Positions 1,775 through 43,000 of a stretch of 64,000 nucleotides of DNA are shown here, piece by piece. This DNA comes from Clostridia bacterium (lineage in GTDB: Bacteria; Bacillota; Clostridia; Oscillospirales; CAG-272): contig JAFQDF010000033.1 in assembly GCA_017416185.1 (NCBI GenBank), forward strand, positions 92,634 through 156,633, written 5' to 3'. The position numbers and the translations under genes were made by a program. Under the pieces are notes generated by a model. The model saw only the letters and a list, made by a program, of their open reading frames with translations, had not been told where the DNA came from and did not search any database. Position 1 is the first letter of the stretch. The number at the start of each line of letters is the position of its first letter.

Positions 1775-2743
1775 TTATTGGTGCTTATTACGCTTACGTT
1801 CCATATATCTTGAAACAATTTTAGGCGCCACCGAAACAGCTATCATAAGTAATTTCTCTTTTCGTGTCAAATAAGAATTACATATTCCGGTTTTTAAGTT
1901 TTTTCGAACATATTTTAAAGCTTTTAAATAAATTTCATCAGATTTACGGTCATATCTGAAAGGACATCTGGTAAGAAATCCTATATGTTGACGTATTTCA
2001 AATCGCTGTGCTTCTTCGAAACAATTTGGAAAGTTATCCTCAACAAAACGACGCACGATAGAAGAATTATCTACCATATCATGCACTGCCTTTCCAAAGA
2101 TATTACTAATACTTCCTTTTCTGATGAAATATTCATATCCTATAGTGTCCGTATAAACAACGTCATCAATGTTTTCGATAATGGATACCATAAATAATAA
2201 ATCTTCATTTAGTTTTCCCTCATCAAAGCGTTTGTCCGCTATAACCGCCCGCGGGTACAAACGAGTACAAACCGATCCCCCATCTTTATTCAAAAGAATG
2301 TTTTTAAGCATTTGTTCCTGTGAAACGGTTTTTTTAGAAGATACATCCTTATATATGAGGTTTCCAAGTTCATCCTTGGCAATAAGACCGGTTTTTATGA
2401 TAGTACGATAACCTTTACGCAAAGCAACCATCTCCTCATACATGGTTTCACTTATCCGATCGTCACTATCCACAAAGCCGATATATTCTCCTTTACAATG
2501 ATCCAAGCCTGCATTGCGCGCGCTACTTAACCCCCCATTGGGTTTGTGTATTACGCAAACTCGGGGATCCTTTGCCGCATACATATCACATAATTCCGGA
2601 CATCTGTCAGGTGAACCGTCATTTACCAAAATCACCTCAATATTGGTGTATGTTTGGTTCAGAATCGAATTTACACAATCTTCCAAATAGTCCTCAACTT
2701 TATATATAGGAACTATAATACTTATTAAAACATTTTCATCCAT
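1775..2743 (-). CDS. Glycosyltransferase family 2
   Basis: ISIIVPIYKVE, VNDGSPD, NGGLSSARNAG, FVDSDD. Confidence 0.9.
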   Translation of the reverse strand: MDENVLISIIVPIYKVEDYLEDCVNSILNQTYTNIEVILVNDGSPDRCPELCDMYAAKDPRVCVIHKPNGGLSSARNAGLDHCKGEYIGFVDSDDRISETMYEEMVALRKGYRTIIKTGLIAKDELGNLIYKDVSSKKTVSQEQMLKNILLNKDGGSVCTRLYPRAVIADKRFDEGKLNEDLLFMVSIIENIDDVVYTDTIGYEYFIRKGSISNIFGKAVHDMVDNSSIVRRFVEDNFPNCFEEAQRFEIRQHIGFLTRCPFRYDRKSDEIYLKALKYVRKNLKTGICNSYLTRKEKLLMIAVSVAPKIVSRYMERKRNKHQ

Positions 2744-2767
2744 AAACTCACCTGCATATTGTTGTAT

Positions 2768-2834
2768 ATATCAGTATTAGCCATATAAATGTTGCCCGTC
2801 ACACACCACGAGGCGGTTCTGATATCAGTGTGAC
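2768..2834 (-). ncRNA. HDV-like self-cleaving ribozyme candidate (copy A)
   Basis: P1 GUCACAC/GUGUGAC, P2 AUAUCAG/CUGAUAU, P3 ACC/GGU, L3 GCCUCGU, GGGCAAC after P1, short P4 CAU/AUG, J4/2 GCUAA with putative catalytic C; G instead of U at first L3 position. Confidence 0.7.
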
Positions 2835-2835
2835 C

Positions 2836-2853
2836 CCCCTGCAAAAGCAGGGG
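2836..2853 (-). other. GC-rich hairpin between surface-protein stop codon and ribozyme A
   Basis: CCCCUGC-UUUU-GCAGGGG with no downstream U-tract on the coding strand. Confidence 0.7.
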
Positions 2854-2869
2854 TTGAAAAGACAGTTAA

Positions 2870-5800
2870 TTATTTTTCGATAATCATCTTACCGTCTTCA
2901 TCAAATTCGAAATATGCCTGAGGAACAGGGGTGCCGTCTGCAAAGGTAAGACCGTTGGTCTTATTTACATACTTGCGAACATCCTTGATGATCTTTGCAT
3001 TGTCGTTTACATAGTAGAAGTTGCCCTCGTGCTCTACCAGTCCGTAATAGTTACCTACCATTACACCGTTGATGTAGTAATGATCGCCTACAAGACCGTT
3101 GAGTACGGGAGTATCAGGGGTATCGGGCTCGTCTGCCTCGATAACCATCTTACCGTCAGCATCGAAATCATAGTATGCCTGAGGAACGGGAGTGCCGTCT
3201 GCAAAGGTAAGACCGTTGGTCTTATTTACATATTTACGTATGTTCTTAATTATCTTACCGCCATCATTTACGTAGTAGAAATCGCCTTCATGCTCTACGA
3301 GGCCGTAGTATGCACCAACTCGTACACCGTCAATATAATAGTAATCACCTACGAGACCGTTTCTGGTTGCGGTAACACCGTCCTTATAGTAGTTTTCTAC
3401 TCCAAATGCATCTGTATAAAGACCTGAATAAAGAACCTTACCGGTTTCATCTACAACATAAGATACGCCGTCAATTTCATAACTGTCTACAGCCGTAGAT
3501 ATATTTCCAAGCTCGAAATAATACAGAACACCGTCAACGGTTTGAAGTGCTTTATCAACCATCTTTCCATCTGCGCCAAATGTATATGTACCAGCGGGAA
3601 GATCACAATAAACTATATCACAATTTCTTGTTGTGTTGCTAACAGCGCAACGATAGTTGCCGGATGTGAAGTAATAATAAGCACCGTCGATCTTACGCAA
3701 GCCAACAGAGGAAAGTCCATCAACAACGTAGTAAAGCTTACCGTCCACGGTAAATGGACCATCCTGAGTGTAAGTGCTGATCATAGCGCCATCGGTGCCG
3801 AAATCATACCACTCGTACTGTTCATTGTTATCATCGTCGACAAAACGGATACCCTTGTAGCAGTAACCATCAACAGGGAAACAATACTGTTTGCCGTCAA
3901 TTTCATACCAACGAGCAGCACCATATCTACCTGTATAATATGTAGGACCGTAATAGTATCTGGAGCCGGAAGAGGTATGATACCACTGACCGGAGATAAG
4001 CTTACCGGTTGCCTCGAACTCAAACGTTACGTAGCCGTTGTTATAAGTAGCAACATTAGCATAAGTGGTTGTATCAAAATAGTACCACTCATCCTCGATG
4101 AGCTGCCAACCTGAAACCAAATTGCCGGCTACAACGTAGTATGATGTGTCACCGAAGGTAACAAGACCGTTCTTGGTATATGTAGCACCGCATGCACAAG
4201 CAAGCACACCTTCAACTACTGTATAAATATGACCTGTTGCAGGAACGGTAGTACCCCAATCGATTACGGAGCCACAGCCGTTATGTGTATCGCATTCAGC
4301 ACCGAGATTTTCAACGGAACCGCATGCACAAGCTGTACAGAATACACGATTTGCATATCCGGTTTCAGTACATGTAGGAGCCTTGCTCTCTGCTTCGCCG
4401 GGAGTACAGATATGGAAGCTCCATTTGTTCTGTCTGTTAGCGTTAGTATAGTAACGGTTCATTTCTGTCTGAAGCACAGTTTCGTTTGCAGAGAAGGTTT
4501 CGGTTGTGCCATCAGTATAGGTAACGACACCTGCTTCAGCACCAACAACCAAACGGTAATCTCTGGTACCGTCAGAATACCACATGGCGTGGGGGGTAAG
4601 AATATAATATTTGTCCTGTTTAGCAGGATCGTTGGAGATATAGTCCTTACGAATACCGCTGTCATCCATCCAACCCTTTGCCATCCAGATGCGAACGGGA
4701 AGCTTAGCAAGAACAGTAGTATCAGCAATTTCTGTACCTGTGCGGGTAAATGTAATTACTGCATCGTTATGATTGTTGATATAATATTCAGCCTCAAAAC
4801 CGTATGCAACCTCCATACCTTCGAGTTCCCAATCGTTGACATAGTCAAGATTAATGGTGGTGGTTACGGAATCTACGTCTGCAAGGTTATCAGCAACCAA
4901 GTTAAGCCAGTAAATAGAGCCTGTAGGAATTAAGCCGGTTGCAGCGGGTACTTCAAGGCGAACCGCACTCTTATCTGTATTAACAACAAGCTTGCGAACG
5001 ATGTTACCAACGTTACCCTGGTTGTCGCTGATTTCCATAACGAGGGTATGAACACCGTCATTCAAATACAGGTCGGAAACTGCGATAGTTCCGTTGACAG
5101 CTGTGAAAATCGCCGCTGTGCTTTGTACGCCGTCAACATACAGTTTTACAGAATTACGATTCAAACCAGTAGCATTGGTCTTTGTTGTGTTCTCGTATGC
5201 CTGTGCCATCAAATCGATGGTATTAGTGGTAATTGTCTGACCGTCAACCTCTACGCCATTCGTATAATCATCAGCAATTGTCATACTGGTGAAGTAGGGG
5301 TTCTCGCGGTCAATAGTAGCATCAGAATAGTCAACTGTAATGTCGTCTATATAGTAAGTAACATCCTGATAATAATTGTAACTTCCTGTACCGGCTGTAT
5401 AATGGCTGTTGATCTGAATATATTCGAAAGTCGAATAGGTATCCAGTACGTCCCAGCTAAAATAGTACCATCCACCATTATCAATTCCAGTATTGGATGC
5501 CAGATAAGCTGTCAATTGGTGGTCCACGCGAGCACTGCCACCGTCAGTTGTTCTGAAACCGGCATTAACATTCATAGATGCAGTAACCAGTTCAGCAGGA
5601 ATATACATCCAGAAACCAATCTTTGTTGCGTCTGTAAGATCAAGGGATTCAGGAAGGAAGAGATCCATCTGACCGTGGCAGGATGCGGTAACGTTGGTCC
5701 AATCTATATCTACACCCATAGCATAGTTGCCATTTCTGACCATACCGCTATCACGGTCCACCAAATATACCTGTGCAGGGATATCCATACCAACGGGAGT

Positions 5801-7477
5801 ATAGTTCTTCTTTCCAAAGAATCTGTACGCAAAATGACCGTTTGCACGTGTATCGCGGATGAACCATCCGTAAGGCTCACCTTCAGCGGGAGCTACTTCG
5901 GGGTCAACGTCAACAAGGAACTCACCGTCTTCGAAGTCGTAAGCAATCTCAGATGCTTTACCGAAACGGATCTCAGCAGTAACCGCTTTATCTGTCTGTC
6001 CGCAGATAACTGCTGTAACGGTACCGCCGGTCAGACCTGTGCTTTCATCGCATGCGGTAAACATATCACCATTGATTGTACCAAGATTTTCATCAGACAG
6101 AGTATAAACTATATCTTCATCTTCATATGCAACGGTATTGAAACCATCGTTAGTTGTTACTTCTATGGGAAGAGCTATAGAATCACCATATCCGATAACA
6201 ATTGTATCTGTCTTGAAAGAAATATCGGGAAGTACTATTGTGATTGAAGCTTCTCCAACCACATTACCGTTATATACCATTTGAGCGGTAACTTTACCTT
6301 CCTTACCATTGGATGTAAATATGCCATTTTCGATAGTACCAAAGGATTCGTCAACCAGCTGCCACTCTACATCTTCGGGAATATCTGCGGTTGTACCAAC
6401 AGCATCAGTACCTACAGCATTAAATACAACGTTAGAACCGGGTGTATAGTATTCGCTATCTGTGGTTATATGAGCACGAACAAACTCACCATTTGCGGGA
6501 GCAGTAGAAATAAAAAGAATACCGGAAGTGGTAGGACGTTCCGAACCGTCGGAGGGAGAGTTGTTAACCTTAAGCTCCTCACCGGGACGCTGTGAAAGGA
6601 AGGTAGATGTTCCGCCACCGTCACAGTTAACAGCATAGGAGCAGCCCAGATCAGCCATAACCTCAGCCAGCTCCTTCAGATTCATACCTTCAGAATAGGG
6701 GGTCTGACGACCATCATTTTCCATAATTACAACAGTACCATCGTCCTTGATACCTACGACAGAACGGGGTGCGGAGCTGGTGGCATAGTCACCGGTCGCA
6801 CTAACCACACCATTCTTAAGAATATAACCGCTGGAACAAGGGATGACCTGATCTTCCCAACCGTCGAGATCAGCGGCGGATGTGATCTGAGGCATCTCAA
6901 CCTTAGGGATATCATCAGGTCTGGGATTGCCGTTTTCGTCAAAATCCTTGTTAATAACAAGAACGGACGGGAAGCCTACCTTACCATAGGTATATCCACA
7001 ATTTGCGGGGTCAAAAAGAATCTCTGCATCGAGCATAATGAAGCCGAGAGGTTCACCTACACGATCTGCAGAATAACCGGTATACCAGCTAAGTGTGGTG
7101 TTCATAGCACCTACAACGTTGCCGTAGCCGTTTGCCTCAGCATACGCTGCCTGCTCGGACATAGTTCCGGTCTTGTAGTCACCATACTTAGGCACCATGC
7201 CGTTATAGCTGTTGATAACCTTAACGTATTCGTTATTAAGGTCAGCTTCCATAACATGAATGACCTGACGGTAAGTTCCGGCATCGTTATTTAATACGAT
7301 CTCGGATTCAGAAATACCGGGAGCTATTTCCCAGTCTTTCTTGCTGATGAGTTTGTAGTATCCGTCGTCGCTGATATCAAAATCAACGGCTGCAAAGAGC
7401 TGCAGGGGCATTATGCCGACAAGCATAAGTGCCACAAGCATACAGGACACTACACGTTTGAAAGAAGTGTTTTGCAT
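2870..7477 (-). CDS. Large secreted surface protein (~1535 aa): signal peptide, phosphodiester glycosidase (NAGPA-like) domain, aromatic-rich cell-wall-binding-like repeats
   Basis: GGAGG RBS before ATG 7477 (MQNTSFKR..., hydrophobic signal peptide); APRSVVG, DGRQ, NCDGGGTS motifs; duplicated C-terminal module (GLVGDYYYI..YYGLVEHEG.FYYVND). Confidence 0.8.
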   Translation of the reverse strand: MQNTSFKRVVSCMLVALMLVGIMPLQLFAAVDFDISDDGYYKLISKKDWEIAPGISESEIVLNNDAGTYRQVIHVMEADLNNEYVKVINSYNGMVPKYGDYKTGTMSEQAAYAEANGYGNVVGAMNTTLSWYTGYSADRVGEPLGFIMLDAEILFDPANCGYTYGKVGFPSVLVINKDFDENGNPRPDDIPKVEMPQITSAADLDGWEDQVIPCSSGYILKNGVVSATGDYATSSAPRSVVGIKDDGTVVIMENDGRQTPYSEGMNLKELAEVMADLGCSYAVNCDGGGTSTFLSQRPGEELKVNNSPSDGSERPTTSGILFISTAPANGEFVRAHITTDSEYYTPGSNVVFNAVGTDAVGTTADIPEDVEWQLVDESFGTIENGIFTSNGKEGKVTAQMVYNGNVVGEASITIVLPDISFKTDTIVIGYGDSIALPIEVTTNDGFNTVAYEDEDIVYTLSDENLGTINGDMFTACDESTGLTGGTVTAVICGQTDKAVTAEIRFGKASEIAYDFEDGEFLVDVDPEVAPAEGEPYGWFIRDTRANGHFAYRFFGKKNYTPVGMDIPAQVYLVDRDSGMVRNGNYAMGVDIDWTNVTASCHGQMDLFLPESLDLTDATKIGFWMYIPAELVTASMNVNAGFRTTDGGSARVDHQLTAYLASNTGIDNGGWYYFSWDVLDTYSTFEYIQINSHYTAGTGSYNYYQDVTYYIDDITVDYSDATIDRENPYFTSMTIADDYTNGVEVDGQTITTNTIDLMAQAYENTTKTNATGLNRNSVKLYVDGVQSTAAIFTAVNGTIAVSDLYLNDGVHTLVMEISDNQGNVGNIVRKLVVNTDKSAVRLEVPAATGLIPTGSIYWLNLVADNLADVDSVTTTINLDYVNDWELEGMEVAYGFEAEYYINNHNDAVITFTRTGTEIADTTVLAKLPVRIWMAKGWMDDSGIRKDYISNDPAKQDKYYILTPHAMWYSDGTRDYRLVVGAEAGVVTYTDGTTETFSANETVLQTEMNRYYTNANRQNKWSFHICTPGEAESKAPTCTETGYANRVFCTACACGSVENLGAECDTHNGCGSVIDWGTTVPATGHIYTVVEGVLACACGATYTKNGLVTFGDTSYYVVAGNLVSGWQLIEDEWYYFDTTTYANVATYNNGYVTFEFEATGKLISGQWYHTSSGSRYYYGPTYYTGRYGAARWYEIDGKQYCFPVDGYCYKGIRFVDDDNNEQYEWYDFGTDGAMISTYTQDGPFTVDGKLYYVVDGLSSVGLRKIDGAYYYFTSGNYRCAVSNTTRNCDIVYCDLPAGTYTFGADGKMVDKALQTVDGVLYYFELGNISTAVDSYEIDGVSYVVDETGKVLYSGLYTDAFGVENYYKDGVTATRNGLVGDYYYIDGVRVGAYYGLVEHEGDFYYVNDGGKIIKNIRKYVNKTNGLTFADGTPVPQAYYDFDADGKMVIEADEPDTPDTPVLNGLVGDHYYINGVMVGNYYGLVEHEGNFYYVNDNAKIIKDVRKYVNKTNGLTFADGTPVPQAYFEFDEDGKMIIEK

Positions 7478-7505
7478 GTGGTTTTCCTCCATATAAAAAT
7501 TTTTA

Positions 7506-8354
7506 TTATATAAACCGCTTAGCGGATTTATATTCTTGTTTGATGTACTCGGTATAAGACTTTTGGGTGTCGCACACCTCATACACATGATGACTGATCT
7601 GCTTTTCCTTGGAAAGCTCAGCTCTCCAGTCACCATACTTTTGGGTTAAGTATTCATCATATTTTTGCGGTATACGAACGTTGAGTCCTTCAAACTCTGC
7701 CCAGATTCCTTCACCATATTGTTCACGTGGTGCATATTCCAGCTCGCCCTGCCAATTTCCGTGATTGCACCATATTTCGGATTTCTCCAGCTGCCATCGG
7801 GATAAATAATTTGTCAGCTTCTCTGCGGTAGCATTGGTTTTTCGATGAAATCCAAACAATCGAAAAACCGATAAAAGCGCCTTTGTTAATGCTTTTTGCT
7901 CGTTATTATTTTTACATGATGAAATCATCAACAGTTTCAACAGTTTCTTTTTCTTTTCAAAACGCTTTATCATCCCGTGTTCGGACGGATATCCGTCAAG
8001 AGGAAATATGTCAATGTATATACCATGATTAATAGGCAAATCTGCAGTAGGGGTTTCTATAAACGCTGTTCTTGAATCTCTAAGCTTAGAATATATTGTA
8101 GGAAAGGCCGGGTCTGTTTTGTAATTCTGCAAAAAATAATACTCGGGCAACATTTTCTGCGCATTTTCACAGAAGATCTCATAATCTCTACGGGGTAACG
8201 CTATATCAATATCATCATCCCACGGAACAAATCCCTTATATTTCACAGCACCTATAACAGATCCGCATACCATATAATAGACAAGTCCCAACTCATCGCA
8301 TATGCCAAGTACTTGCTTGAGCATATTCAATTCAATTTCTTGTACCTCTGTCAT
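7506..8354 (-). CDS. licD: LicD-family phosphotransferase
   Basis: GSVIGAVKYKGFVPWDDDIDI, IDIFPLD, YLTQKYGDW. Confidence 0.88.
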   Translation of the reverse strand: MTEVQEIELNMLKQVLGICDELGLVYYMVCGSVIGAVKYKGFVPWDDDIDIALPRRDYEIFCENAQKMLPEYYFLQNYKTDPAFPTIYSKLRDSRTAFIETPTADLPINHGIYIDIFPLDGYPSEHGMIKRFEKKKKLLKLLMISSCKNNNEQKALTKALLSVFRLFGFHRKTNATAEKLTNYLSRWQLEKSEIWCNHGNWQGELEYAPREQYGEGIWAEFEGLNVRIPQKYDEYLTQKYGDWRAELSKEKQISHHVYEVCDTQKSYTEYIKQEYKSAKRFI

Positions 8355-15266: not shown

Positions 15267-17558
15267 TCAGACCCCTATTGCCATTAACATTTTTGTCTGC
15301 CTTGGAGTAAGTTTTTTATCGCTTTTTCCGTTAAGTCGTTTCCTCTGTTCATAAAGCCAACGGTAGAGCCATACCCCCCCGCAAACATAATCGGAAGGAA
15401 TATTCGTATGTCCGTGTTCGTTATAGTAATCCTTTACCAACAGGTATTTTTCTTCCCACTGATCAGTAGACTTCCAATTCATTCCGATAAGATCCAGCTT
15501 TTGCTTTCTTTCGGGTGCAAGAGTACCCTTTTCGTACGTCTCACGCTGGAGTCTCAACCATCTGCCTATACGCAAGCCTTCGGGAGTTTCGTATGCTACG
15601 GGAATATTAAGATGTCCGTTTGCTTTTTTATAAGCACAAACTGCGGCATAGTTTTTTTGCCAAATTATGTCCTGCTTATTTCCCCACAGCATACCAAGCT
15701 CGTCCAGTCTACGTTTCTGCTCCTCGGTAAGCTTAGCTCTGTTGTTTTGGTCCTTCATAGCAGCACGAAGAGAATATATCCATGCACCGAGACGTATACC
15801 GTCTTCATCTGTATATGCAGCAGGAACGTCAAGATCTCCGTACTCTCTGTGATATCTCAAAGCTGACTGAAAATTACGTTCCCACAGATAGTCAACGGCA
15901 CTCCATACCATACCTATCTTCTCTAACGCTTCCACACGCTCGGGCGTAAGGTAAGCGGTTTTGATACCGTTTTTTCGGTAACTTCGGAGATTGGCTATCC
16001 ATGAACCGAGATCAACACCGCAATAATCCTTCTCGGCAATATTCACCACTAGATCTCCGTGCTCTGCATAATACTTACAGGCTGCCGAATAATACCTCTC
16101 CCAGGCCATATCCTTTACACTTTTCCATGAAAAGCCTATAGCTTCTAATTTAGCTGTCTGCTCATCGGTCAGCTTTCCTCTGACTTTACCCTCATGGACG
16201 AGCCGTTGTGTAGCAAGCCAGGAACCCAAGGTATAACCCTCTGAAGTTACATATCTTTTCGGAACATCCAGATTACCGTTTTCATCAAAGTATCTTTTCG
16301 CAGCTTCATACATAAGATCCCAGGAAGCTCCCAGGGTATCATTGAGCCTATCAAAAAGCTCTCTGCAATCTCTGACCTCGTCCGTTATTTTGAAATGCTC
16401 GTTTACTATATCGTCTTCGCACCCCAAAGAGCGGTAATAGGAGGTTGCTATCTGCATCTCCTCCTCTATGGCGTCGATGCTGTAAAGATTATCAATATTC
16501 AATACGATATCGAATATGACGGCAGACTCATTCCTGCCTGCAGCGAGAGCTCTGCCTATCTGCTGCTTGTATACTATGGGCGATACCGTAGGACGAAGAA
16601 GAATCACTCCGCTTATATCATCAACGTGTACGCCCTCGTTAAGCATATCGATACAGAACAAAAGCTTGATATGCTTACTTGTATCCTTCTTAAAAGCCGC
16701 AAAGCTGGCATCGGTTTCCGGATCGTCCGAATACGCCTTATAAATATGGGGCTCGTTGTCTATGTTCTTAAACCATTCCCTCGCCAGCTCAACCATACTG
16801 CACATATGATCGTAGTCCGCGCAGAAGACAAGATACTTGCCTGAACGGTCTGTTATATGCTTTTCAAAAATTTCATCTATACCCTCAGACATTTCGAGGG
16901 TCCTACGTAATGCATCCAGATACTTTTGCCCCTCATCACGTACCGCCTTGTTTTTAGCAGAACGTACCCGATGCTCGTATCTCTTCAGCTGCTTTTCATA
17001 AGCAAACACGGCTAAAACATACTTTGGAGGTGCAAGAATTCCCTTTACGACAGCCTCTCCTAAGGTCATATTGCTTGCAACACAACCGTCAAAAAGCTCA
17101 TCAGCCATATTTCTTTGATTATCAAGATATCTGACAGCCGTAGCAGATAAGCCGAGGATAGGCGTATCGGGATACGTCTGCAATAACGTATCCACTCCAC
17201 CGCCCCACATCTTAGCGCCGCAACGGTGAAACTCGTCCAATATAATGTAGTCGGGTTGTATCTGCATAAGCTCTTCTTCGCCTATATTCATAAGCTTGGC
17301 ATAGGTAAAAAAGATGATATTATCGGGGACATAACCGTCAGAGCATCTACGGAGATTATCTAACTGAGTCTTGAATATGTATTCGGAAGGAGATAACCAA
17401 CATATACGTTTGTCCGGATTATCCTCACAGAGCTTAAATCCGATAAATGACTTGCCGGTTCCGGTAGGATGAACAACAGCGGCTTTGCCGGTCTTTTCCA
17501 GCATAGCGACAGCGCTATGATAAGCATCACAATTATGCTTGAATAAGTCTATTGCCAC
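15267..17558 (-). CDS. Superfamily-2 (DEAH/ResIII-like) helicase with C-terminal helicase-associated (HA) repeats
   Basis: PTGTGKS, DEFH, SAT, QQIGRA; about five Trp-rich repeats (W...Y..A..Y...HG.L.VP..Y....G..LG.W...QR). Confidence 0.85.
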   Translation of the reverse strand: MAIDLFKHNCDAYHSAVAMLEKTGKAAVVHPTGTGKSFIGFKLCEDNPDKRICWLSPSEYIFKTQLDNLRRCSDGYVPDNIIFFTYAKLMNIGEEELMQIQPDYIILDEFHRCGAKMWGGGVDTLLQTYPDTPILGLSATAVRYLDNQRNMADELFDGCVASNMTLGEAVVKGILAPPKYVLAVFAYEKQLKRYEHRVRSAKNKAVRDEGQKYLDALRRTLEMSEGIDEIFEKHITDRSGKYLVFCADYDHMCSMVELAREWFKNIDNEPHIYKAYSDDPETDASFAAFKKDTSKHIKLLFCIDMLNEGVHVDDISGVILLRPTVSPIVYKQQIGRALAAGRNESAVIFDIVLNIDNLYSIDAIEEEMQIATSYYRSLGCEDDIVNEHFKITDEVRDCRELFDRLNDTLGASWDLMYEAAKRYFDENGNLDVPKRYVTSEGYTLGSWLATQRLVHEGKVRGKLTDEQTAKLEAIGFSWKSVKDMAWERYYSAACKYYAEHGDLVVNIAEKDYCGVDLGSWIANLRSYRKNGIKTAYLTPERVEALEKIGMVWSAVDYLWERNFQSALRYHREYGDLDVPAAYTDEDGIRLGAWIYSLRAAMKDQNNRAKLTEEQKRRLDELGMLWGNKQDIIWQKNYAAVCAYKKANGHLNIPVAYETPEGLRIGRWLRLQRETYEKGTLAPERKQKLDLIGMNWKSTDQWEEKYLLVKDYYNEHGHTNIPSDYVCGGVWLYRWLYEQRKRLNGKSDKKLTPRQTKMLMAIGV

Positions 17559-17577
17559 TGTTTTCCCTCCTTCCTGT

Positions 17578-17605
17578 ATGCAACGTAATTTACATTATGT
17601 TACAT
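17578..17605. repeat. Left recombination site (dif-like 11-6-11)
   Basis: ATGCAACGTAA-TTTACA-TTATGTTACAT; core 17582-17601 is a 19/20 inverted match to 17873-17892. Confidence 0.8.
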
Positions 17606-17693
17606 TGGGTTTTGTCAACGATAATCCCGTTTCAATCGAATATCTACAAAATCATCACATTACAGGATATTAATTGGCAAAAAACAAAAATAA

Positions 17694-17749
17694 GCATAAC
17701 AATGCTACCCTTATTTTTGAAAGAATCAAAATAAGGGCATTTGTTATGC
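17694..17749. other. Long imperfect hairpin inside the invertible segment
   Basis: GCATAACAATG..CCCTTATTTT / AAAATAAGGG.CATT.TGTTATGC. Confidence 0.6.
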
Positions 17750-17797
17750 CTTGAAACATTATGTATAATCAACGGTTTCCATTTAATGAAAAAACTC

Positions 17798-17826
17798 TTG
17801 ATTTTTATTAAGAATGATGATATAAT
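17798..17826 (+). promoter_or_regulatory. Sigma-A promoter inside invertible segment, currently pointing away from cluster 1
   Basis: TTGATT-17 nt-TATAAT with extended -10 TG. Confidence 0.72.
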
Positions 17827-17868
17827 TTATTTGGGGTATTGGCGATACCTGTAGTTTTTATGCAATTT

Positions 17869-17896
17869 TTTCAACATAATGTAAATTATGTTTACC
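17869..17896. repeat. Right recombination site (dif-like 11-6-11)
   Basis: TTTCAACATAA-TGTAAA-TTATGTTTACC; 6-bp spacer is the reverse complement of the left spacer. Confidence 0.8.
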
Positions 17897-17897
17897 C

Positions 17898-17919
17898 GGG
17901 TGCTTCGGCATCTTTTTTT
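17898..17919 (+). terminator. Intrinsic terminator just outside right inverted repeat
   Basis: GGGTGC-TTCG-GCATC followed by T7. Confidence 0.7.
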
Positions 17920-17920
17920 G

Positions 17921-18739
17921 TTATATTACCAAATGCATATTTTCCATTTTTCTTCGATGTTCGATTCCTGTCGTTATAATATATATTCTTGTAGTATTGA
18001 TATTGGAGTGACCGAGGATATCGGCAAGCTTAACGATGTCCTTTTCTATTGAATAGAATATTCGGGCAAACAGATGTCGTAAATTATGCGGAAAAACCTT
18101 ACGACTGTCAACCCCGGCAGCATCGCATACACTTTTCATACTTCGCCATACGGTCACACGGCACAAAGGTATGCCGTTGGAGTTTACAAATATAGGTCCT
18201 GCAGCTATTCCTTTGTCCTTAGCATAACGAAGAAGCTGCTGCTTTAATCTTTCTACAATAAATACGGTTCTCGACTTACCCTTGCATTTTACGGTTACAC
18301 AACCCTGTCGAACTCCCTCTACCGTTATATATTTCAACTCGCTGATACGTATCCCCGTACCGCAAACGGTCTGAAATATCAGATAGAGTCGGATATTGTT
18401 TTGTCTTTTTGCTTCGTTTAACAGCCGAAAATATTCCTCTTTAGACAGCTCTTTGTCCTCGGAGCAATATATTTCCCTCTGTATTTTGAATTGACGCACG
18501 CACAATTCGGCTCTGCCGATGAATTTAAGATACGAATTCAAGGCTGCAATCATCGAGTTGGCAGACCTTGGGGTATATTTCCTTTCAAGCTCCGCCTTAT
18601 ACTCAAGGATCAACTGCTTGTCCAACGTTTTACCGTCCGAAAATTCGGCAAACTTTTTTACATCTCTTATATATTTTTCGATAGTCAGCTCGCTTTTTTC
18701 GTCTTCATAAAGAAAGGTTCTGTACTCGGCAATTTTCAT
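17921..18739 (-). CDS. Tyrosine recombinase (XerC/D-like site-specific invertase candidate)
   Basis: TGIRISEL, KGKSR, HNLRH, LGHSNINTTRIY catalytic motifs; GGAGG RBS before ATG 18739; lacks arm-binding N-terminal extension. Confidence 0.92.
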   Translation of the reverse strand: MKIAEYRTFLYEDEKSELTIEKYIRDVKKFAEFSDGKTLDKQLILEYKAELERKYTPRSANSMIAALNSYLKFIGRAELCVRQFKIQREIYCSEDKELSKEEYFRLLNEAKRQNNIRLYLIFQTVCGTGIRISELKYITVEGVRQGCVTVKCKGKSRTVFIVERLKQQLLRYAKDKGIAAGPIFVNSNGIPLCRVTVWRSMKSVCDAAGVDSRKVFPHNLRHLFARIFYSIEKDIVKLADILGHSNINTTRIYIITTGIEHRRKMENMHLVI

Positions 18740-18927
18740 GTTTTTACCTCCGTAAAAATCTTTTGCATAAGATAACAAAACAGGAACTATTCCCAAAATT
18801 GTTCCTGTTGCTCTGATTATATTTTAACACAAAAATAGCCGATTATTAATAATCAGCTCTTTATGAATTTATATTAGTGAACAATAATAAAAATATCGTA
18901 ATTTCTAATATAAAGCAAAAATGCATC

Positions 18928-32296: not shown

Positions 32297-35200
32297 TTAT
32301 TTTAATATCAATCTGCCTTCAGCATCGAACTGATATGTACCTGCAGGCAACAGGCCGTTAGCTCTTGCCGCATTGAAGGAGTACGTACAGTTCTTGACTG
32401 CCTTTGAAGAGGAGTTGATGTAATAGTAGTTGCCTTCGTACTCAACGAGACCCTTACTCTTAACAGCTACACCGTTTTCATAGTAACGGATGTTGCCGTC
32501 GGGATCCCATACAAGTCCGTTTTTAGGTGCATTGGGATCGGGAAGTTTTTCAATTATCTGTGTTTCAGTAACACCACAGACTGTACAAGATCTTGTCTTG
32601 ATACCTGTTGAGGTGGTGGCAGGTGTTGTTACTACCCAGTCACCCCATATATGTGCTGAACAAACCAGCATAGGAATTTCCCTTGTATCGGTTGCGCCGC
32701 AGTTCACACAGGTGCCTGTTTCGATACCCTTTGAGGTATAGCTTGCAGGGGTCGTTACCACCCAGCTCATAATATGCTCGGCACAGATAAGCATGGGTAT
32801 CTCCCTTGTATCACTTGCCTTACAGTTGGTGCAGGTGCCTGTTTCGATACCCTTTGAGGTATAGCTTGCAGGGGTCGTAACTATCCAGCTCATAATATGC
32901 TCGGCACAGATAAGCATAGGCAGCTCTCTTGTCTCGCTTACCTTACAGTTGGCACAGGTGCCTGTTTCAATACCCTTTGAGGTATAGCTTGCAGGGGTTG
33001 TAACTACCCAATTCATAATATGCTCTGTACAGATAAGCATGGGGATCTCTCTTGTCTCTGCCTCGCCGCAGCCTGCACAGGTCCTTGTTTCCACACCTAT
33101 ATTGGTATAGCTTGCGGGAGTTGTCAGGAGCCAGTTGCTCCATACGTGGGTATGGTCAAGCATGGGAATTCTGCGGCTCTCGGTGACTGCACAATCGGCA
33201 CAGGTCCTTTCCTCAAGACCTACAGTACTTTCACTTGCCGGGGTCTTGACTGTCCAAGAGCTCCAGATATGCTCTGTACAAGTAAACATAGGAATTTCCT
33301 TGGTCTCGGTCTCCCCGCACTTGGGACAAGCTCTGCTCTCGATACCTTTTTCAATGTAGCTTGCAGGAGCTGTGATGAGCCAATCACTCCATACATGGGT
33401 ATGGTCAAGCGTGGGAATATCCCTTGCCTCGGTCTCACCGCAGAGGGTGCAAAGCCTGATCTCATTACCTACAGTATCCTCTGTTGCGGAGGATACAACT
33501 GTCCATACAGACCAGCTGTGAGCACAGGAAAGGGGAGAAATTTCACCCTTTTCGCTTGCTTTACAGTAATAGCAATCTCTTGACTGAAGACCTGCTTCAG
33601 TATCGGTGGCAGGAGTGATCACAGTCCACTCTGCCCAGAAATGAGCCTTGCAGTCAGCTACGGGAGGATCGATGATCCTGCCCTGTGCATCAAATTTATA
33701 GGTGCCTGCAGGGAGCAGACCGTTTGCTCTTGCTGCATTGAAGGAGTATGTACAGTTCTTGACTGCCTTAGAGGTGGAGTTGATGTAGTAGTAATCTCCA
33801 TTATATATAACAAGACCTTTACTCTTAACAGCTACACCGTTTTCATAATAACGTATGTCACCGTTGGCATCCTTCACAATGCCGTTCTTGGTAGCATTGG
33901 GATTCACAACGGGAATGCTCTGCGTTTCGGTCATACCGCACTGAGTACAGCCTCTTGTCTGAACTCCTGCAGAGGTGGTTGTGGCCTCGGTCATAATGAT
34001 CCAGCCGCCCCAGGTATGTGTGCAACCGGGAACTCCAAGCATTGGAATCTCTCTTTCCTCAGTGGCATTACATACTGCACAGGCTCTTGCTTCAATGCCT
34101 GCCTCTTCATAGCTTGCAGCGCTCTTTACCGTCCATATACCCCATATATGCTCTGCACATACGAGCATAGGAATTTCCTCGATTTCGACAGCACCGCAGT
34201 TTGCACAAACAGCAGTCATTTCGCCTGCAGAGGTATAGCTTGCAGGAGCAGTTATTGTATAACTCCAAATATGCTCTGTGCAAAGGAGCTTGGGAGTTTC
34301 TCTTGTCTCGGCTTCACCGCAGCCGACACAGGCTCTGGACTCAACGCCGGAGACTGTATAGCTTGCAGGAGCTGTAATAAGCCAGGAGCTCCATACATGA
34401 ACATGCTCAAGTATAGGTATCTCTCTGGTTTCAGCTTCGCCGCAGTTTGCACAGGTTCTGCTTTCAATACCCACAGAGGTCTCGGTCGCAGGAGTTGTTA
34501 CTGTCCACGCACTCCAGATATGCTCTGTACAAATGAGCATGGGAATTTCTCTTGTTTCTGTTTCACCGCAGCCTGCGCAGGTTCTGACTTCAGCACCGAC
34601 AGAGGTGTAAGTGGCAGGAACTGTTACAATCCAGTCGCTCCATACGTGAGTATGTTCAAGCAGGGGGATCTCTGCGGTTTCTTTTTCGCCGCAAAGGGTA
34701 CATTCTCTGGCTTGAACACCTGTAGAAGTCTCGGTTGCAGGAGTTGATACCACCCATTCGCCCCAGCTGTGTGTGCATATGAGCATGGGAATATTACGTG
34801 TTTCGCTTGCACCGCACTTGGGACAAGTTCTTGTTTCAACACCCTCGGACGTATAACTTGCGGGAGTTGTTACTACCCATTCGCCCCAAATATGTGTATG
34901 CGGCAGCTTGGGAATTTCTCTGGTTTCCTTTTCGCCGCAGGAACAGCTTCTGGTTTCAGTACCTACCGTATCCTCAGTTGCGGGAACTGTTACCGTCCAG
35001 GCACTCCAGCTGTGTGTATGTACCGAAAGCTCTCTTGTTTCGGATGTACCGCAGTAGCAGCATTTTCTGATCTCAAGACCCGCTGCGTCAGCGGTCTTCC
35101 ATTCTCCCCAATAGTGAGCCCTGCACTTGGTAACGGGGGGATCGATCAGCTTGCCTGTAGCATCGAACTTATATGTGCCTGCAGGAAGCAGACCGTTTGC

Positions 35201-38200
35201 CATAGACGCAGCGAAGGAGTAAGAACAATTCTTAACTGCTTTAAGGGAAGAATTGATATAGTAAAAGTTACCTTCATTATCTCTCACAAGACCTGCACGG
35301 GTAGCCTTGCCGTCAACATAGTAACGGACATCACCGTTTGAATCCTTGATAAGTCCGTTTTTCACAGAAGATGCAGGTATCTGCTGTGTCTCGGTCTTGC
35401 CGCACTCGGTACAGCCTCTGCCCTCTACACCTGCAGAAGAAGCGGTGGGTTGAGTATGGATGACCCACGCACCCCATATATGAGTACATACCTTAACAGG
35501 AACGATCTGTGTTTCGGTAAGCGTACAAAGGGTACACGATCTGGTCTCAATTCCTGTTTCGGTATAGCTTGACGGTACTGTTACCGTCCAAGCACTCCAC
35601 ACATGGGCAGTGCAGGTAACCTTAGGAATTATCAGCTCCTCATAAACGTCACAAAGCTTACAATCTCTTCTTTTGTAGCCCTCGGAGGTATAGGTTGCAG
35701 AGGTTACAATGACCCAGTTGCCAAATGTATGGGTTGCACACTCCACGTAGGGCGGATCGATCATCTTACCGTCGTCACCAAACTGATATGTACCTGCAGG
35801 CAAGAGACCGTTGGTCATTGACTCAGGAACGGTAAAGCTGCAGTTCTTTACAGCCTTGAGATCCGAGTGGATATAGTAATATGCTCCGTTGTCCTCTACG
35901 TCTCTTATAAGACCTGCATAGGTTGCAACGCTGTCAACATAGTAACGTACCTCACCGTCATCATCTCTGATAATGCCGTTTTTGATCCATTCTGCCTCAA
36001 CACCGTTTTCATAATAATGTGTCTTTTGATCGGGGCCCTTAAAAAGACCGGTATAAAGCACCTTGCCGTCAGAGGCGATAGCATAGCTGTTGCCGTTAAT
36101 ATCAACGCTGCCCGTTCCCTGAGACTTTACACCTGTCTTAAAGTAATACAGAACACCGTCAAAGGCATAAACGTCATCATTGAGCATTCGTCCCTCTGCA
36201 TCAAAGAAGTAGGTGCCTACGGGAAGCAATCCCTTGGTATATCCGCAGTAGAAGGACTGATTCTTTATGCCTGCGTATTTATTTGAAAAATAGAAGTAGT
36301 AATATTCTCCGTCTACCTTGTACATTCCGTACTGGGAGACGCCGTTTTTAACGTAATAGTGATTGCCGTTCCATCTGGCAAGGCCTGTATAATTCCATTT
36401 GCCCTGGCAGGCACCGTATTCGTCAAAAATATACCAGGTGTATGTATCGGATGCGTCATTTTGATCATCTACCCAGCGGGTACCTGTTGCAACGTATCCG
36501 TCCTTGTCGATGCAGTAGTCCTTACCGTCGATGGTGTACCAGGTCATACAGCTGCTTCCGCCCTTGAGACAGTCAGGGCCCTCATAATACTTATGGCCTG
36601 CGGCAGAGTGATACCATACACCGGATACCAGCTTGCCGTCGGGGTAGAACTCAAAGGTAACGTAGCCGTTATTATATGTATCTACAGAGGTATAGGTCTT
36701 GGTATCAAAGTAATACCAGGAGCCGCCCATGCTTACCCAGCCGCCCAGCAGCTTTCCGTTTACCAGATAACAGCTCTTTCCGTTCAGCTCAACAAGTCCG
36801 GTGCCGGTCTTTACATCACCGCAGACGCAAACGAGCTGTCCGTTTTTAACCTTATATATATGTCCTGTTGCAAGAGTGGTTTCACCCCACTTGACAACAG
36901 AGTCACAGCCGTAGCAGAAGCTTCTGCCCGTATACCCTGCCTCCTGACAGTTGCCTGCCTTGTCGGCGATAGCCACGGGAGTATGCTCGTGGAAGCCCAC
37001 ACCTGCCGAAATACAGCTGTTGAGCCATTCGTTTGCGCCCTCTGTACTGTCCTTTTCGGAATAGTTAAAGAACAGCTCGGTATCAACCGATATATCATTC
37101 ATTCCGAAAGCTCCGAAAACCTCGGATCCGTAGGAATCTACATATGTTACCTCGCCCTTTTCAAGAGCTATTTCCACACTCTGAGCCCAGATAACACCGT
37201 CACGGACCAGCTCTGCGGGAGATTTATCCGAGGAAGAGGTCCAGGTACGCACAGGTATTGTGGCAAGTATTGTCTCACCTGTGGAAATAACCTCACCTGT
37301 TCGCTCAATAACGATAGTTGCGATGTTATCCGCACTTTGAACAGCAGACGTTACACCAAAGCCTGCAGCAAGGGTCATACCCTCAAGCTCCCAGGAGGAA
37401 GCATTGTTAAGATCAAGGGACAGCGTCACCTTGTCTAATGTTTCTATTTGGGTAGCGGTAACGTCCAGCTGATAAACAGAGCCTATGGGCAGACGGTCGG
37501 CATCAGGATCGTGAGGCTCAACTCTGACACTTGAAAGCCCGCTGCCGCTCTTAATAATGATCTTTGCCTGTGTATAGGCGATATTTCCCTTGTTATCGGC
37601 GATTTTGAACATAACGGTATGAATACCGTCTGCCAGGGTTATGCCCGAAAGGGTAATTTTTTCGTTTTTATAGGTACAAGCTACCTCTACACCGTCAATA
37701 AATGCCTGTGCAGAGCGCTCATTAATGCCCGAAGCATTTGCAAAATCTGTATTTTCCGCAACAGATACCTCATAGGAGGCCTTGTTATAGCCGACTGTCT
37801 GTCCATTAAGAGCGTTTACCGCTCCGTTTGTGGGATCAATAACGCAAATATCGGAAAATACGGGAGCATAACGGTCATCCACCGCCTCCGAATAATCCAC
37901 TGTAATATCGTCGATATAAAATACAAATCTGCCGTTAAGATTTGTATTGTCAGTACTGTTGTCATCTACCGTTACGGTAATACTGTCAAAGGAATCGCCG
38001 CCCGGTGCTGCACTTATATAATTCCAACCCTCTGTGAGATCATATAGCTCGCCGACTTCGATACCGCCGTTGCCGAATTTTATTTCGGCATTACGTGCTT
38101 CGTAAGGAGCATAAAGCCAGAAGCCTACTGCAGTCGCATCGGTAGTGTCAAGTGCGGGGAAATTCACGGTAATGCTGTTATTGCCGGTTGTGTCAAGTGT

Positions 38201-39880: not shown

Positions 39881-39950
39881 AAAGGATCTCCTTTCCGGTT
39901 TATATATTTCAAATTGACCGTTACAGGTAATTTGCAAACCCTCGGTTTGA

Positions 39951-40026
39951 ACGACCGAATCAGCCGAAATCTTAAATGATTTCGTTGCCCGCCGCACGCC
40001 CCGTGGAGGCTTCGATTATGTGCGGC
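39951..40026 (-). ncRNA. HDV-like self-cleaving ribozyme candidate (copy C)
   Basis: P1 GCCGCAC/GUGCGGC, P2 AUCGAA/UUCGGU, P3 GCC/GGC, L3 UCCACGG, GGGCAAC, P4 CGAAAUC/GAUUUCG, J4/2 GCUGA. Confidence 0.85.
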
Positions 40027-40056: not shown

Positions 40057-43000
40057 TTATTTTAATATCAATCTGCCTTCTGCATCGAACTGATATGTAC
40101 CTGCAGGCAACAGGCCGTTGGCTCTTGCTGCGCTGAAGGAGTATGTACAGTTCTTAACTGCCTTGGAGGTGGAGTTGATGTAGTAGTAGTTGCCTTCGTC
40201 ATCCTGAACAAGACCCTTACTCTTAACAGCTACACCGTCAACGTAGTAACGGATGTTGCCGTCAGCATCCCATACAAGACCCTGCTTAAGATCGGAAGGA
40301 ACCTTAGCTATTGTCTGTGTCTCTGTTGCGCCGCAGTTTCCGCAGGTTCTGGTCTCTACACCTGTCTCGGTATAGGTAGGCTCCTTGGTTACTACCCAAT
40401 CACCCCATACGTGCTCTGTACAAACCAGCATGGGAATGGTGTTTGTTTCAGACATACCGCAGCCTGCACAGGTTCTGGTCTCAACACCTGCAGTGGTATA
40501 GGTAGGCTCTGTGGTTACTGTCCAATCACCCCATACGTGAGTATGCTCAAGCATGGGAATGATGCGTGTTTCTGTCTCACCGCAAAGAGTACATGTTCTG
40601 GTCTCTGTGCCGTTTGCAGTCTCGGTTGCGGGAGTGGTTACTACCCATGCGCTCCAATCGTGTGCACATACGTTGATAGCAGGAATTTCCTCTGTATCGG
40701 TTGCGTTACAGTAGTAGCAGTCTCTGGTCTGGAGGCCGGACTCGGTCTCGGTAGCATCGGTGATAATCACCCATGCGCCCCAGAAGTGTGCGTTACAGTC
40801 AGCAACGGGAGGATCGATCATCTTACCGGTTGCATCGAACTTGTATGTACCTGCAGGGAGCAGACCGTTAGCTCTTGCTGCATTGAAGGAGTATGTGCAG
40901 TTCTTAACTGCCTTAGAGGTGGAGTTGATGTAGTAGAAGTCACCGTTGTACTTAACAAGACCCTTACTCTTAACAGCTGCACCGTTTTCATAGTAACGAA
41001 TATCACCGTTGGCATCCTTCATAACGCCGTTCTTAACAGCATTAGGATCTACTACGGGAATATCCTGAGATTCGGTCGCACCGCACTCGGTACAGCCTCT
41101 TGCCTCAACACCTGCAGTAGTGGTGGTAGCCTCGGTCATAACGATCCAATCACCCCATACGTGTGTGCAGGGAGGAGGATCAAGCTTGGGAACAGACTGT
41201 GTTTCGGTTGCACCGCAGTTAGCACAGGTCTTGGTTTCAACACCCTCGGTGGTGTAGGTAGGCTCTGTGGTTACTACCCACTCACCCCATGCGTGCTCTG
41301 TGCAAACGAGCTTAGGAATCTCTCTGGTCTCTGTTTCACCACAGCCTGCACAGGTCTTGGTCTCAACACCTGCTGCAGTATAGCTTGCGGGAGTTGTAAC
41401 TACCCACTCACCCCATACGTGTGTATGGTCAAGCATAGGAATGGTCTGTGTTTCGGTTGCACCGCAGACATCACAGGTTCTGGTCTCAACACCTGTGGAG
41501 TTCTCGGTTGCGGGAGTTGTAACTACCCATGCGCCCCATGTATGTGTGCATACAAGCATGGGAATCTCTCTTGTTTCGGTTTCACCGCACTTGGGACATG
41601 TTCTGCTCTCTTCACCTACAGAAGTATAGGTTGCGGGAACTGTTTCTGTCCACTCGCCCCATACGTGTGTATGAGGAAGCTTGGGAATCTCTCTTGTTTC
41701 GGTTTCGTTACAAGCGCAGGTTCTGGTCTCAACACCTGTGGTGTCCTCAGTTGCGGGAGTTGTAACTACCCATTCGCCCCAAACGTGAACGTGCTCAAGT
41801 ACGGGGATCTCACGGGTATCGGTCGCATGACAGTAGTAGCATGTACCAAGCTCAACACCTGTAGTGGTCTCGGTTGCGGGAGTTGTAACTACCCAGTTGC
41901 CGAGGAAGTGAGCGTTACACTCAGCTACGGGAGGATCGATCATTCTGCCCTGTGCATCGAACTTATAAGTTCCTGCAGGAAGCAGACCGTTGGACATAGC
42001 TGCGTTGAAGGAGTAAGAACAGTTCTTAACTGCCTTGAGAGAGGAGTTGATGTAGTAGAAGTAACCGTCATTGTCTCTTACAAGACCTGCTCTGGTTGCC
42101 TTACCGTCAACATAGCAACGAACGTCGCCGTTAGCATCCTTCATAATACCGTTCTTAACATCGGATGCAAGTACGGGGATTTCCTGAGTCTGGCTCTCAC
42201 CACACTCGGTACAGCCTCTGCTCTCAACACCTGTGGAGGTGGTGGTTGCAGGAGTCATAACTACCCAGAAGCCCCATGTATGTGTACATACCTTAACGGG
42301 AGCTACCTGAGTTTCTGCAAATGAACAAAGTGTACATGTTCTGGTCTCGATACCTGTCTCGGTATAGGTAGGAGGAGTTGTAACAACCCACTCGCCCCAA
42401 ACGTGCTCTGTACATTCAACCTTAGGAATAACTTCAGTTTCAACAACGTCACACAGTCTGCATTCTCTCTGTCTGAGACCGTCTGCTGTGTAGGTTGCAG
42501 GAGTAACGATAACCCACTTGCGCCATGTATGCTCAGCACACTCAACGTAAGGAGGATCGATCATCTTACCGTCAGCACCGAACTGATATGTGCCTGCGGG
42601 AAGTAATCCGTTGGACATTTCTGCGTTGAAGGAATATGTGCAGTTCTTAACTGCTACCATGGAGGAATTGATGTAGTAGTAGTTACCGTTCATGTCTCTT
42701 ACAAGACCTGCACGGGTAGCCACACCGTCAACATAGTAACGAACTTCGCCGTCATTGTCTCTGATTACACCGTTCTTGACCCATTCGGTCTGTACACCGT
42801 TTTCGAAGTAGATGAGATTGCCGAGAGCATCCTCAAGAAGACCGGTGTAAAGTACGGTACCGTTTGCATCAATATCCCAATAATCGCCGTCAACTGTAAC
42901 AGTGCCGGGACCCTGGTTAGGCTGGCCATTTACAAAGTAAGAAAGCTTGCCGTCAATAACGTAATACTCATTATTGAGCATCTTACCGTCAACATCAAAG

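Follow-up and report, generated by a model that had tools for sequence, protein, structure and literature searches.

A probable HDV-like ribozyme with an atypical loop nucleotide in a hairpin-plus-ribozyme cassette of a clostridial polysaccharide-synthesis operon

The closest described counterpart of the RNA studied here is the HDV-F-prausnitzii ribozyme (RF02682), drz-Fpra-1 of the Luptak laboratory, a member of the hepatitis delta virus (HDV)-like self-cleaving RNAs with a 7-bp P1, a 3-bp P3, a 7-nucleotide (nt) L3, GGGCAAC or AGGCAAC, a short P4, and GGCUAA. In a 64,000-nt stretch of a Clostridia genome (contig JAFQDF010000033.1; hereafter the window), we analyzed an element on the minus strand, copy A, which an earlier note on this DNA had described as a third, divergent HDV-like ribozyme besides two others, copies B and C. 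Copy A shares all the features listed above and comes from the same host order of gut Clostridia, but the first L3 base, which is U in RF02682, is G in copy A, and its score lies below the cut-off of the family. The published RF02682 example is located upstream of glmM (PMC6765202), whereas copy A is located between a phosphodiester glycosidase (NAGPA)-domain gene and a family-2 glycosyltransferase (GT2) gene. According to our analysis, copy A is built like an F. prausnitzii-type ribozyme and lacks two formal features, a score above the Rfam cut-off and the loop-signature U. From its sequence we regard it as fairly probable that copy A is a genuine self-cleaving ribozyme of this type, located in an intercistronic hairpin-plus-ribozyme cassette of a polysaccharide-synthesis operon.

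The HDV ribozyme itself (RF00094) has in common with copy A the nested double pseudoknot, the catalytic C of J4/2, and the G at the sixth L3 position (G25/G28), while its P4 is far longer and it carries U20/U23 where copy A has G. The theta ribozymes, minimal HDV-like ribozymes of gut Caudoviricetes, have their core directly 3' of a stable helix, as copy A does, and their cut sets the 3' end of the upstream RNA, as we propose for copy A; the helix is a tRNA acceptor stem in theta ribozymes and a GC hairpin in copy A (Kienbeck 2024, PMC10879173). The setting also differs, being phage tRNA for theta ribozymes and mRNA of a bacterial chromosome for copy A, and an assignment of copy A to the theta ribozymes could be ruled out, given that it has a 3-bp P4 and that ARAGORN detected no tRNA in the window. 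Classical intercistronic stabilizer hairpins are processed by RNases, which gives segments of different stability. The glmS ribozyme resembles copy A as a self-cleaving element of a bacterial mRNA, one from amino-sugar or cell-envelope metabolism, and its cut alters the fate of the message, but it has an unrelated fold, a glucosamine 6-phosphate (GlcN6P) cofactor, and a position in the 5' untranslated region, nothing of which kind was seen here (PMC6765202). For hammerhead and twister ribozymes in bacterial polycistronic messages, processing of the transcript into parts of different stability has been suggested as an idea that needs work (PMC6765202); the logic that we propose for copy A is the same, a cut within the operon transcript that yields parts differing in stability or translation, and the ribozyme class is different. 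A further difference from these ribozymes and from the stabilizer hairpins is the flush hairpin upstream of copy A, seemingly an integral part of the cassette described below (51 of 53 ribozymes).

All elements of copy A lie on the minus strand of the window, together with the hairpin that precedes it and the two other copies:

2768..2834, minus strand: HDV-like ribozyme copy A, 67 nt, located by RF02682, by our model R1 (see below), and by the helix parse
2834-2828 with 2804-2798, minus strand: P1, GUCACAC/GUGUGAC, 7 of 7 pairs
2825-2819 with 2774-2768, minus strand: P2, AUAUCAG/CUGAUAU, 7 bp
2817-2815 with 2807-2805, minus strand: P3, ACC/GGU, 3 bp
2814-2808, minus strand: L3, GCCUCGU, 7 nt
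2814, minus strand: first L3 nucleotide, G, equivalent to U20 of genomic and U23 of antigenomic HDV in the RF00094 and RF02682 alignments
C2813-G2796 and C2812-G2797, minus strand: P1.1, 2 bp
2791-2789 with 2784-2782, minus strand: P4, 3 bp
C2780, minus strand: J4/2 cytosine in GGCUAA, aligned with the invariant GGC of the family and equivalent to the catalytic C75 of HDV
2834..2835, minus strand: scissile bond predicted from the family, between G(-1) at 2835 and G1 at 2834, position 1 of the RF02682, RF00094, and R1 alignments
2836..2853, minus strand: GC-rich hairpin (CCCCUGC, loop UUUU, GCAGGGG) ending 1 nt, the single G at 2835, before the predicted cut
32266-32194, minus strand: copy B
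40026-39953, minus strand: copy C

With these helices and with GGGCAAC following P1, copy A is, as far as a fold can be read from sequence, almost certainly a complete HDV-like double pseudoknot. The minus-strand sequence given for it in the earlier note is correct letter for letter, as is the distance of 35 nt between the stop codon of the upstream gene (2872-2870) and G1 (2834).

The covariance models agree with this assignment. RF02682 aligned to copy A over its full length (model positions 1-74) with 41.3 bits and an E value of 3.4e-6 in a permissive scan of positions 2500-3200 (701 nt); in the whole genome, where the E value of copy A is 3.0e-6, the model found three sites only, plus one noise match at 14.7 bits. 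A scan of the window at the gathering threshold reported only B (46.8 bits) and C (50.5 bits), and the generic HDV model RF00094 gave 21 bits to copy A (E 1.3). R1, a covariance model that we built from 16 family members with copy A held out, scored copy A at 61.4 bits (rough E 2.8e-14), the next match in the 64-kb window, taken as noise, reaching 10.7 bits, and its search of the genome again returned just the three copies. Covariance models are blind to P2. Among 20,000 shuffles, 3.0% produced a P2-like helix of at least 7 bp joining J1/2 to the tail when G-U pairs were allowed, and 0.6% did so when only Watson-Crick pairs were.

Pairs were counted in a MAFFT alignment of 17 family members, in which P1 is 98.3% paired, with six of its seven pairs varying on both sides, P3 100%, P1.1 97.1%, and P4 93.3%. 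P2 is 43.7% paired in the same alignment; since its 3' strand lies one column out of register in many rows, this count was set aside in favor of per-sequence parses, which in each of the first 13 members gave a longest J1/2-tail helix of 6 to 8 bp, the one in L005 falling outside the usual P2 register. The covariation score was 0.382 against 0.184 in shuffles, none of 500 shuffles reaching the observed value, and slid partners gave at most 0.165. Three family members, L011:1501-1574 and L014:1495-1566 (both in genome G002) and L026:1495-1570 (G187), show GGAAAC or GUAAAC where the others have GGGCAAC behind P1, with the helices otherwise intact, a core variant with a shortened J1/4.

The models and the fold thus bear out a third, divergent HDV-like ribozyme, and the compensatory changes claimed for it were confirmed by helix parse and pair counts. 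P1 of copy A differs from that of B and C (GCCGCAC/GUGCGGC) at two pairs, each altered on both sides, one from C-G to U-A and the other from G-C to A-U; P3 holds one further double change, ACC/GGU against GCC/GGC; P2 differs in sequence from that of B and C and still pairs over 7 bp. The P4 sequence is different as well, with pairing retained. GGGCAAC and the J4/2 C in GGCUAA are conserved among the three copies, and L3 begins with G as had been stated, GCCUCGU in copy A against UCCACGG in B and C.

The hairpin at 2836-2853 is predicted at -15.6 kcal/mol and was recovered in the minimum free energy (MFE) fold of a 125-nt context; it has no U-tract and was not listed by the terminator scan. We followed its occurrence in related ribozymes. 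RF02682 searches matched 9 of 101 relatives' genomes at an E value of at most 0.01 (own genome included; 5 over the cut-off) and 7 of 151 sampled family genomes, which yielded 14 further ribozymes and, with A, B, and C, 17 family loci. A hairpin of -11 to -21 kcal/mol ends 0 to 6 nt before G1 in 16 of these 17, and in 13, copy A included, an upstream open reading frame (ORF) stops 30 to 57 nt before G1 with a C terminus of the type ...Y.FD..GK(M/L)I... (...DGKMI-like). Downstream, an ATG-started ORF of at least 150 amino acids (aa) follows 4 to 179 nt past the match (median 25.5 nt) in 16 of the 17 loci.

A pattern for the U-type core, scanned over one genome per prokaryotic species, gave 56 instances, 53 of them with at least 6 of 7 P1 pairs and 48 of those 53 with all seven. 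Hairpins of -10 kcal/mol or lower end within 3 nt of G1 in 51 of the 53, and of the 46 ORFs found upstream, 35 close with the ...GK... motif and 6 with a CGITQEQI motif. The hosts are Ruminococcus, Acutalibacteraceae, Oscillospiraceae, Faecousia, Lachnospiraceae, and unclassified Clostridia from human, ruminant, and other animal guts. We define the cassette here for Oscillospirales polysaccharide loci, as no published family, by a strong hairpin that ends 0 to 3 nt before G1, a site 20 to 75 nt past the stop of a gene whose surface protein has a ...GK... C terminus, and a next ORF within about 20 to 110 nt. Copy A fits this definition (-15.6 kcal/mol, 1-nt gap, G1 35 nt past the stop, C terminus ...DGKMIIEK, ATG 24 nt after P2). 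Because of the hairpins in 51 of 53 cases, the motifs in 35 of 46, and the host range, we consider the cassette conserved and widespread in this group. The genes next to the ribozyme vary from one family member to another (GT2, GT4, flippase, or another surface protein). In L217, L222, L227, L241, L268, L270, and L025, the upstream genes end in ...CGITQEQI..(L/I)R.IYL.. in place of ...GK..., and the same cassette follows.

The G at position 2814 sets copy A apart. Contigs of three other public runs (X4, X5, and X7, from two other studies) cover positions 2400-2875 or more with 2 or 3 differences each and none within 2741-2869; G2814 is identical in all three, which rules out an error of assembly. 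All 16 other family members carry U as the first L3 base, as do 53 of 53 pattern matches, for which the pattern itself fixed that U, so that a G was found in none of the 69 relatives with a parsed loop and is unique to copy A among them. The L3 signature includes a U at the first and a G at the sixth position, which form the reverse wobble U20-G25 (U23-G28) of HDV (PMC3386971); copy A keeps the G and lacks the U. We detected no orthologue of copy A, the downstream GT2 having no match at an E value of at most 1e-40 in nine genus mates that are 75 to 97% complete; the nearest ribozyme, L263 in a Faecousia metagenome-assembled genome (MAG), is 81% identical and has a U-type loop.

A search of genome contigs for the pattern ACCNCCTCGTGGT-N7-GGGCAAC gave seven stretches and no orthologue; one of them, L018, is a true U-type ribozyme, and the other six, without a visible P1 partner, are most likely chance matches. 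L018:4674-4750 (plus strand), from a Nitrosopumilaceae MAG, is a well-formed HDV-like ribozyme with 57.7 bits under R1 and L3 UCCUCGU, and this archaeal ribozyme is preceded by a long GT dinucleotide run.

G-type loops do occur in nature outside these relatives, as a pattern anchored on GGGCAAC and GGCURA revealed. In species-representative genomes, 1 of 19 matching stretches was a true ribozyme, L165 from a Melainabacteria MAG, with 7 of 7 P1 pairs and L3 GCCACGA. Metagenome contigs gave 47 stretches, 22 of them with 7 of 7 P1 pairs, in 9 P1 sequences. When R1 was run on these 49 sources, it identified 45 ribozymes; single contigs had up to five, and the U and G types occurred together. In these sequences, then, G recurs naturally as the first L3 base, in ribozymes whose helices are intact and covary. 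The same pattern without the J4/2 anchor returned no ribozyme-like sequence among the at least 120 matches listed, those passing the P1 filter being all G+C-rich, a result that does not argue for absence. Across 14 scanned loci, no G-type ribozyme directly adjoins a tRNA; L183 and L165 have a tRNA-Met some 65 to 80 nt downstream of the pattern match. No relevant print of the G-type core was found in the open-access main texts searched.

The metagenome contigs L211, L200, L179, L210, and L195 each carry three to five HDV-like ribozymes of mixed U and G type in about 10 kb, and the flanks inspected in such contigs have a hairpin just upstream. A protein of L211 matches the terminase large subunit (E 5.8e-11), so that L211 is probably phage, and the multiribozyme contigs probably belong to gut phages whose transcripts are punctuated by HDV-like ribozymes of full size, with a P4. 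Eight further metagenome contigs (L166, L171, L173, L175, L184, L189, L194, and L198) contain the exact 13-nt P3-L3-P3 core of copy A, followed by GGGCAAC, a long P4, and GGCUAA, with a P2 that pairs. No P1 5' strand was found upstream in these eight, the best candidates pairing at 3 to 4 of 7 positions; a helix between far flanks seems possible, and they may represent a permuted, split, or different RNA.

The last L3 base differs between the two loop types. With U first, it is C in 28, U in 21, G in 4, and A in none of the 53 pattern matches, and G in 5, U in 7, and C in 4 of the 16 relatives; with G first, it is A in 6, G in 4, and U in 1 of 11 P1 classes, all of these counts coming from pattern-selected, related sequences and being descriptive, not a test. 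The loop of copy A combines a G first with a U last, and a last U occurs in 28 of 69 U-type loops against 1 of 11 G-type classes, so that the copy A loop looks, from its sequence, like a U-type loop with one change. In the MFE fold of the 125-nt context, P3 is extended by G2814-U2808 and C2813-G2809, an extension that would compete with P1.1.

For the effect of such a change on catalysis, Levesque et al. (2012) provide a comparison, having varied the two loop bases of an antigenomic HDV ribozyme acting in trans through all 16 possible combinations (PMC3386971). According to that work, the G23/G28 combination, which is that of copy A, is among four mutants retaining activity, with a k2 of 0.0037 per min against 1.74, a 470-fold drop, and a KMg of 10.0 mM against 4.4 mM; U and G occupy these two loop positions in all 508 natural HDV versions and are counted as a signature (PMC3386971). 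Given that copy A cuts at all, it likely cuts more slowly than B and C, since a G stands in a loop that is otherwise of the U type, and the earlier suggestion that this copy may be slower or differently tuned appears reasonable. As to whether it would cut at a biologically useful rate, the sequence makes us lean towards yes.

The explanation that comes closest to competing with a working ribozyme is that of a crippled copy, in which the fold is intact and the U-to-G change lowers catalysis by at least two orders of magnitude, leaving a structured spacer or a decaying relic with little cutting within the lifetime of the mRNA. The 470-fold drop in HDV, corresponding to a half-time of about 3 h at 10 mM Mg2+ (PMC3386971), speaks for it, as do the singularity of the G among the 69 relatives, the U-type loop of the nearest one (L263, 81% identical), the lowest RF02682 score and the weakest P4 of the three copies, and a last loop base that fits the U-type pattern and suggests a recent single change. 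Yet every helix is intact, and P1 carries compensated double changes relative to every relative, so that pairing was maintained while the copies diverged over a long time. The NAGPA proteins next to A are only 39% identical to those next to B and C, neither the hairpin nor the distance to either gene is disturbed, and natural G-type ribozymes with full covariation exist. On balance we regard a crippled copy as possible, though the less probable outcome.

A ligand-tuned ribozyme, in which a sugar phosphate or nucleotide sugar of the pathway modulates copy A and the G variant sets a different response, has an analogy in its favor, since copy A lies in a sugar-polymer operon and allosteric modulation by GlcN6P is cited for the F. 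prausnitzii ribozyme upstream of glmM (PMC6765202); none of our results supports the effectors suggested in the earlier note. It appears very unlikely to us, given 67 nt that add neither a further domain nor a conserved pocket to the standard fold, and neighboring genes that differ among family members. Chance resemblance, or a noncatalytic cluster of hairpins, might be argued from the score under the Rfam cut-off and from an MFE z-score of only -0.48 for 68 nt, a model from which pseudoknots are left out; in our view it is refuted by the genome-wide E value of 3.0e-6, the 61.4 bits from the held-out R1, a P2 that pairs independently of the models, and a gene context common to more than 60 relatives.

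The reading of copy A as a working ribozyme draws on its surroundings, among them three features on the minus strand:

2870..7636, minus strand: NAGPA-domain (phosphodiester glycosidase) gene upstream of copy A, stop codon 2872-2870 (PF09992, E 1.7e-23)
2747..2753, minus strand: Shine-Dalgarno-like AGGUGAG of the downstream gene, read from the sequence, with a presumed role
1775..2743, minus strand: GT2 gene downstream of copy A (PF00535, E 1.6e-37), its ATG 24 nt past the end of P2

The upstream ORF counts 1588 aa from the first ATG, the 1535 aa of the earlier note presumably corresponding to a later start. Its protein has C-terminal repeats ending in ...YFEFDEDGKMIIEK that are weakly like choline-binding repeats (PF19127, 19.5 bits, below the 27-bit cut-off), and over the C-terminal 250 aa it has homologues encoded upstream of 13 other ribozymes. 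The downstream GT2 is 33 to 34% identical to the GT2 genes that follow ribozymes in L005 and L006. A site scan of the minus strand found no promoter-like or terminator-like site at positions 2740-2900.

A, B, and C are each located directly 3' of a large NAGPA-domain (PF09992) gene and 5' of a glycosyltransferase gene, except for C, which precedes another NAGPA gene. Copy A holds, as had been claimed, the equivalent position in cluster 1, and the two polysaccharide clusters have the same gene order: Bac_transf, HpcH/HpaI-like, 2-hydroxyacid dehydrogenase (2-Hacid_dh), GT4, GT2, EpsG, GT4, LicD, NAGPA, and ribozyme. Inside this shared run, cluster 2 has an Asn-synthase-like gene and a further GT4-like gene as extras, and it has two tandem NAGPA genes with a ribozyme after each. 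Protein identity between the clusters ranges from 88% (HpcH) down to 32% (LicD and EpsG), with 39% for NAGPA; therefore, A has long been separated from B and C.

The tandem NAGPA-domain genes of cluster 2 are giant (32297-39997 and 40057-46926, minus strand; 2566 and 2289 aa by longest ORF). Their last 100 nt or so are near-identical, and the same double hairpin and ribozyme follow each, an arrangement that looks like a recent duplication of the gene end plus cassette. Cluster 1 is headed by a helicase with five helicase-associated (HA) domains (15267-18796, minus strand), and a tyrosine-recombinase gene of the phage integrase family lies just upstream of the helicase, which hints at a mobile or invertible polysaccharide locus.

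From the grounded elements, namely, the fold, the site between a stop and the next start, and the flush hairpin, we infer cleavage, its products, and an effect on stability as follows. Transcription would read through from the NAGPA gene into the GT2 gene, and the RNA would fold and cleave itself between 2835 and 2834. The 3' end left on the upstream message, a stable GC hairpin with a 1-nt overhang that bears a 2',3'-cyclic phosphate, would be hard for 3' exonucleases to attack. The downstream message would begin about 60 nt before the Shine-Dalgarno sequence, its 5'-OH paired in P1 and enclosed by the ribozyme fold. The two halves of the operon, a very long surface-protein message and the glycosyltransferase messages, would in this way get separate lifetimes while transcription continues. 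Mispairing of upstream sequence with the ribozyme is known for HDV, and the upstream hairpin may also prevent it here. The 2019 review calls the roles of bacterial self-cleaving ribozymes besides glmS "largely elusive" (PMC6765202).

A number of points weigh against this proposal and against the estimate of the cutting rate. Copy A, at 41.3 bits, stays below the RF02682 gathering cut-off of 44 bits, which B and C pass; its P4 consists of merely three A-U-rich pairs, and its P1 and P2 are richer in A-U than their counterparts in B and C. There is little strain depth, the strains being about 99.5% identical, so that identity of the ribozyme among them is uninformative on selection. The mutagenesis system is a trans-acting antigenomic HDV ribozyme, of another family than copy A, and the occurrence of G-type loops in 11 natural P1 classes means that G need not cripple, which bears against the argument for a slower rate. 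RNase J1 is involved in the degradation of the glmS 5'-OH product. That product is degraded, not protected (PMC6765202), and by this precedent the downstream half could be destabilized instead of stabilized.

Overall, the interpretation from which this work started is supported. In the open-access main texts searched, no paper links HDV-like ribozymes with polysaccharide or glycosyltransferase loci, the hairpin itself being no target of that search, and it may be that neither the cassette and its association with genes for NAGPA surface proteins in polysaccharide loci nor the natural occurrence of G-type loops has been described before. A more far-reaching view, which we offer tentatively and hold to be rather doubtful, is that the "invariant" HDV loop U is not invariant and that the G type is a working alternative core, found in copy A, Melainabacteria, and ribozyme-rich gut phage contigs. 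The cassette would then be a device for a protected mRNA 3' end in an operon without a terminator or RNase, and copy A would be a slow version that sets another ratio of surface protein to glycosyltransferase in cluster 1 than in cluster 2.

One genome holds three natural versions of one HDV-like ribozyme in the same slot of two paralogous polysaccharide operons, and copy A is changed at a core position that is nearly essential in HDV mutagenesis. The order of surface-protein gene, flush hairpin, ribozyme, and next gene recurs in more than 50 gut and rumen Clostridia and suggests a testable function, the self-made mRNA 3' end together with the uncoupling of an operon, while the comparison of A with B and C constitutes a natural experiment on the U-G reverse wobble.

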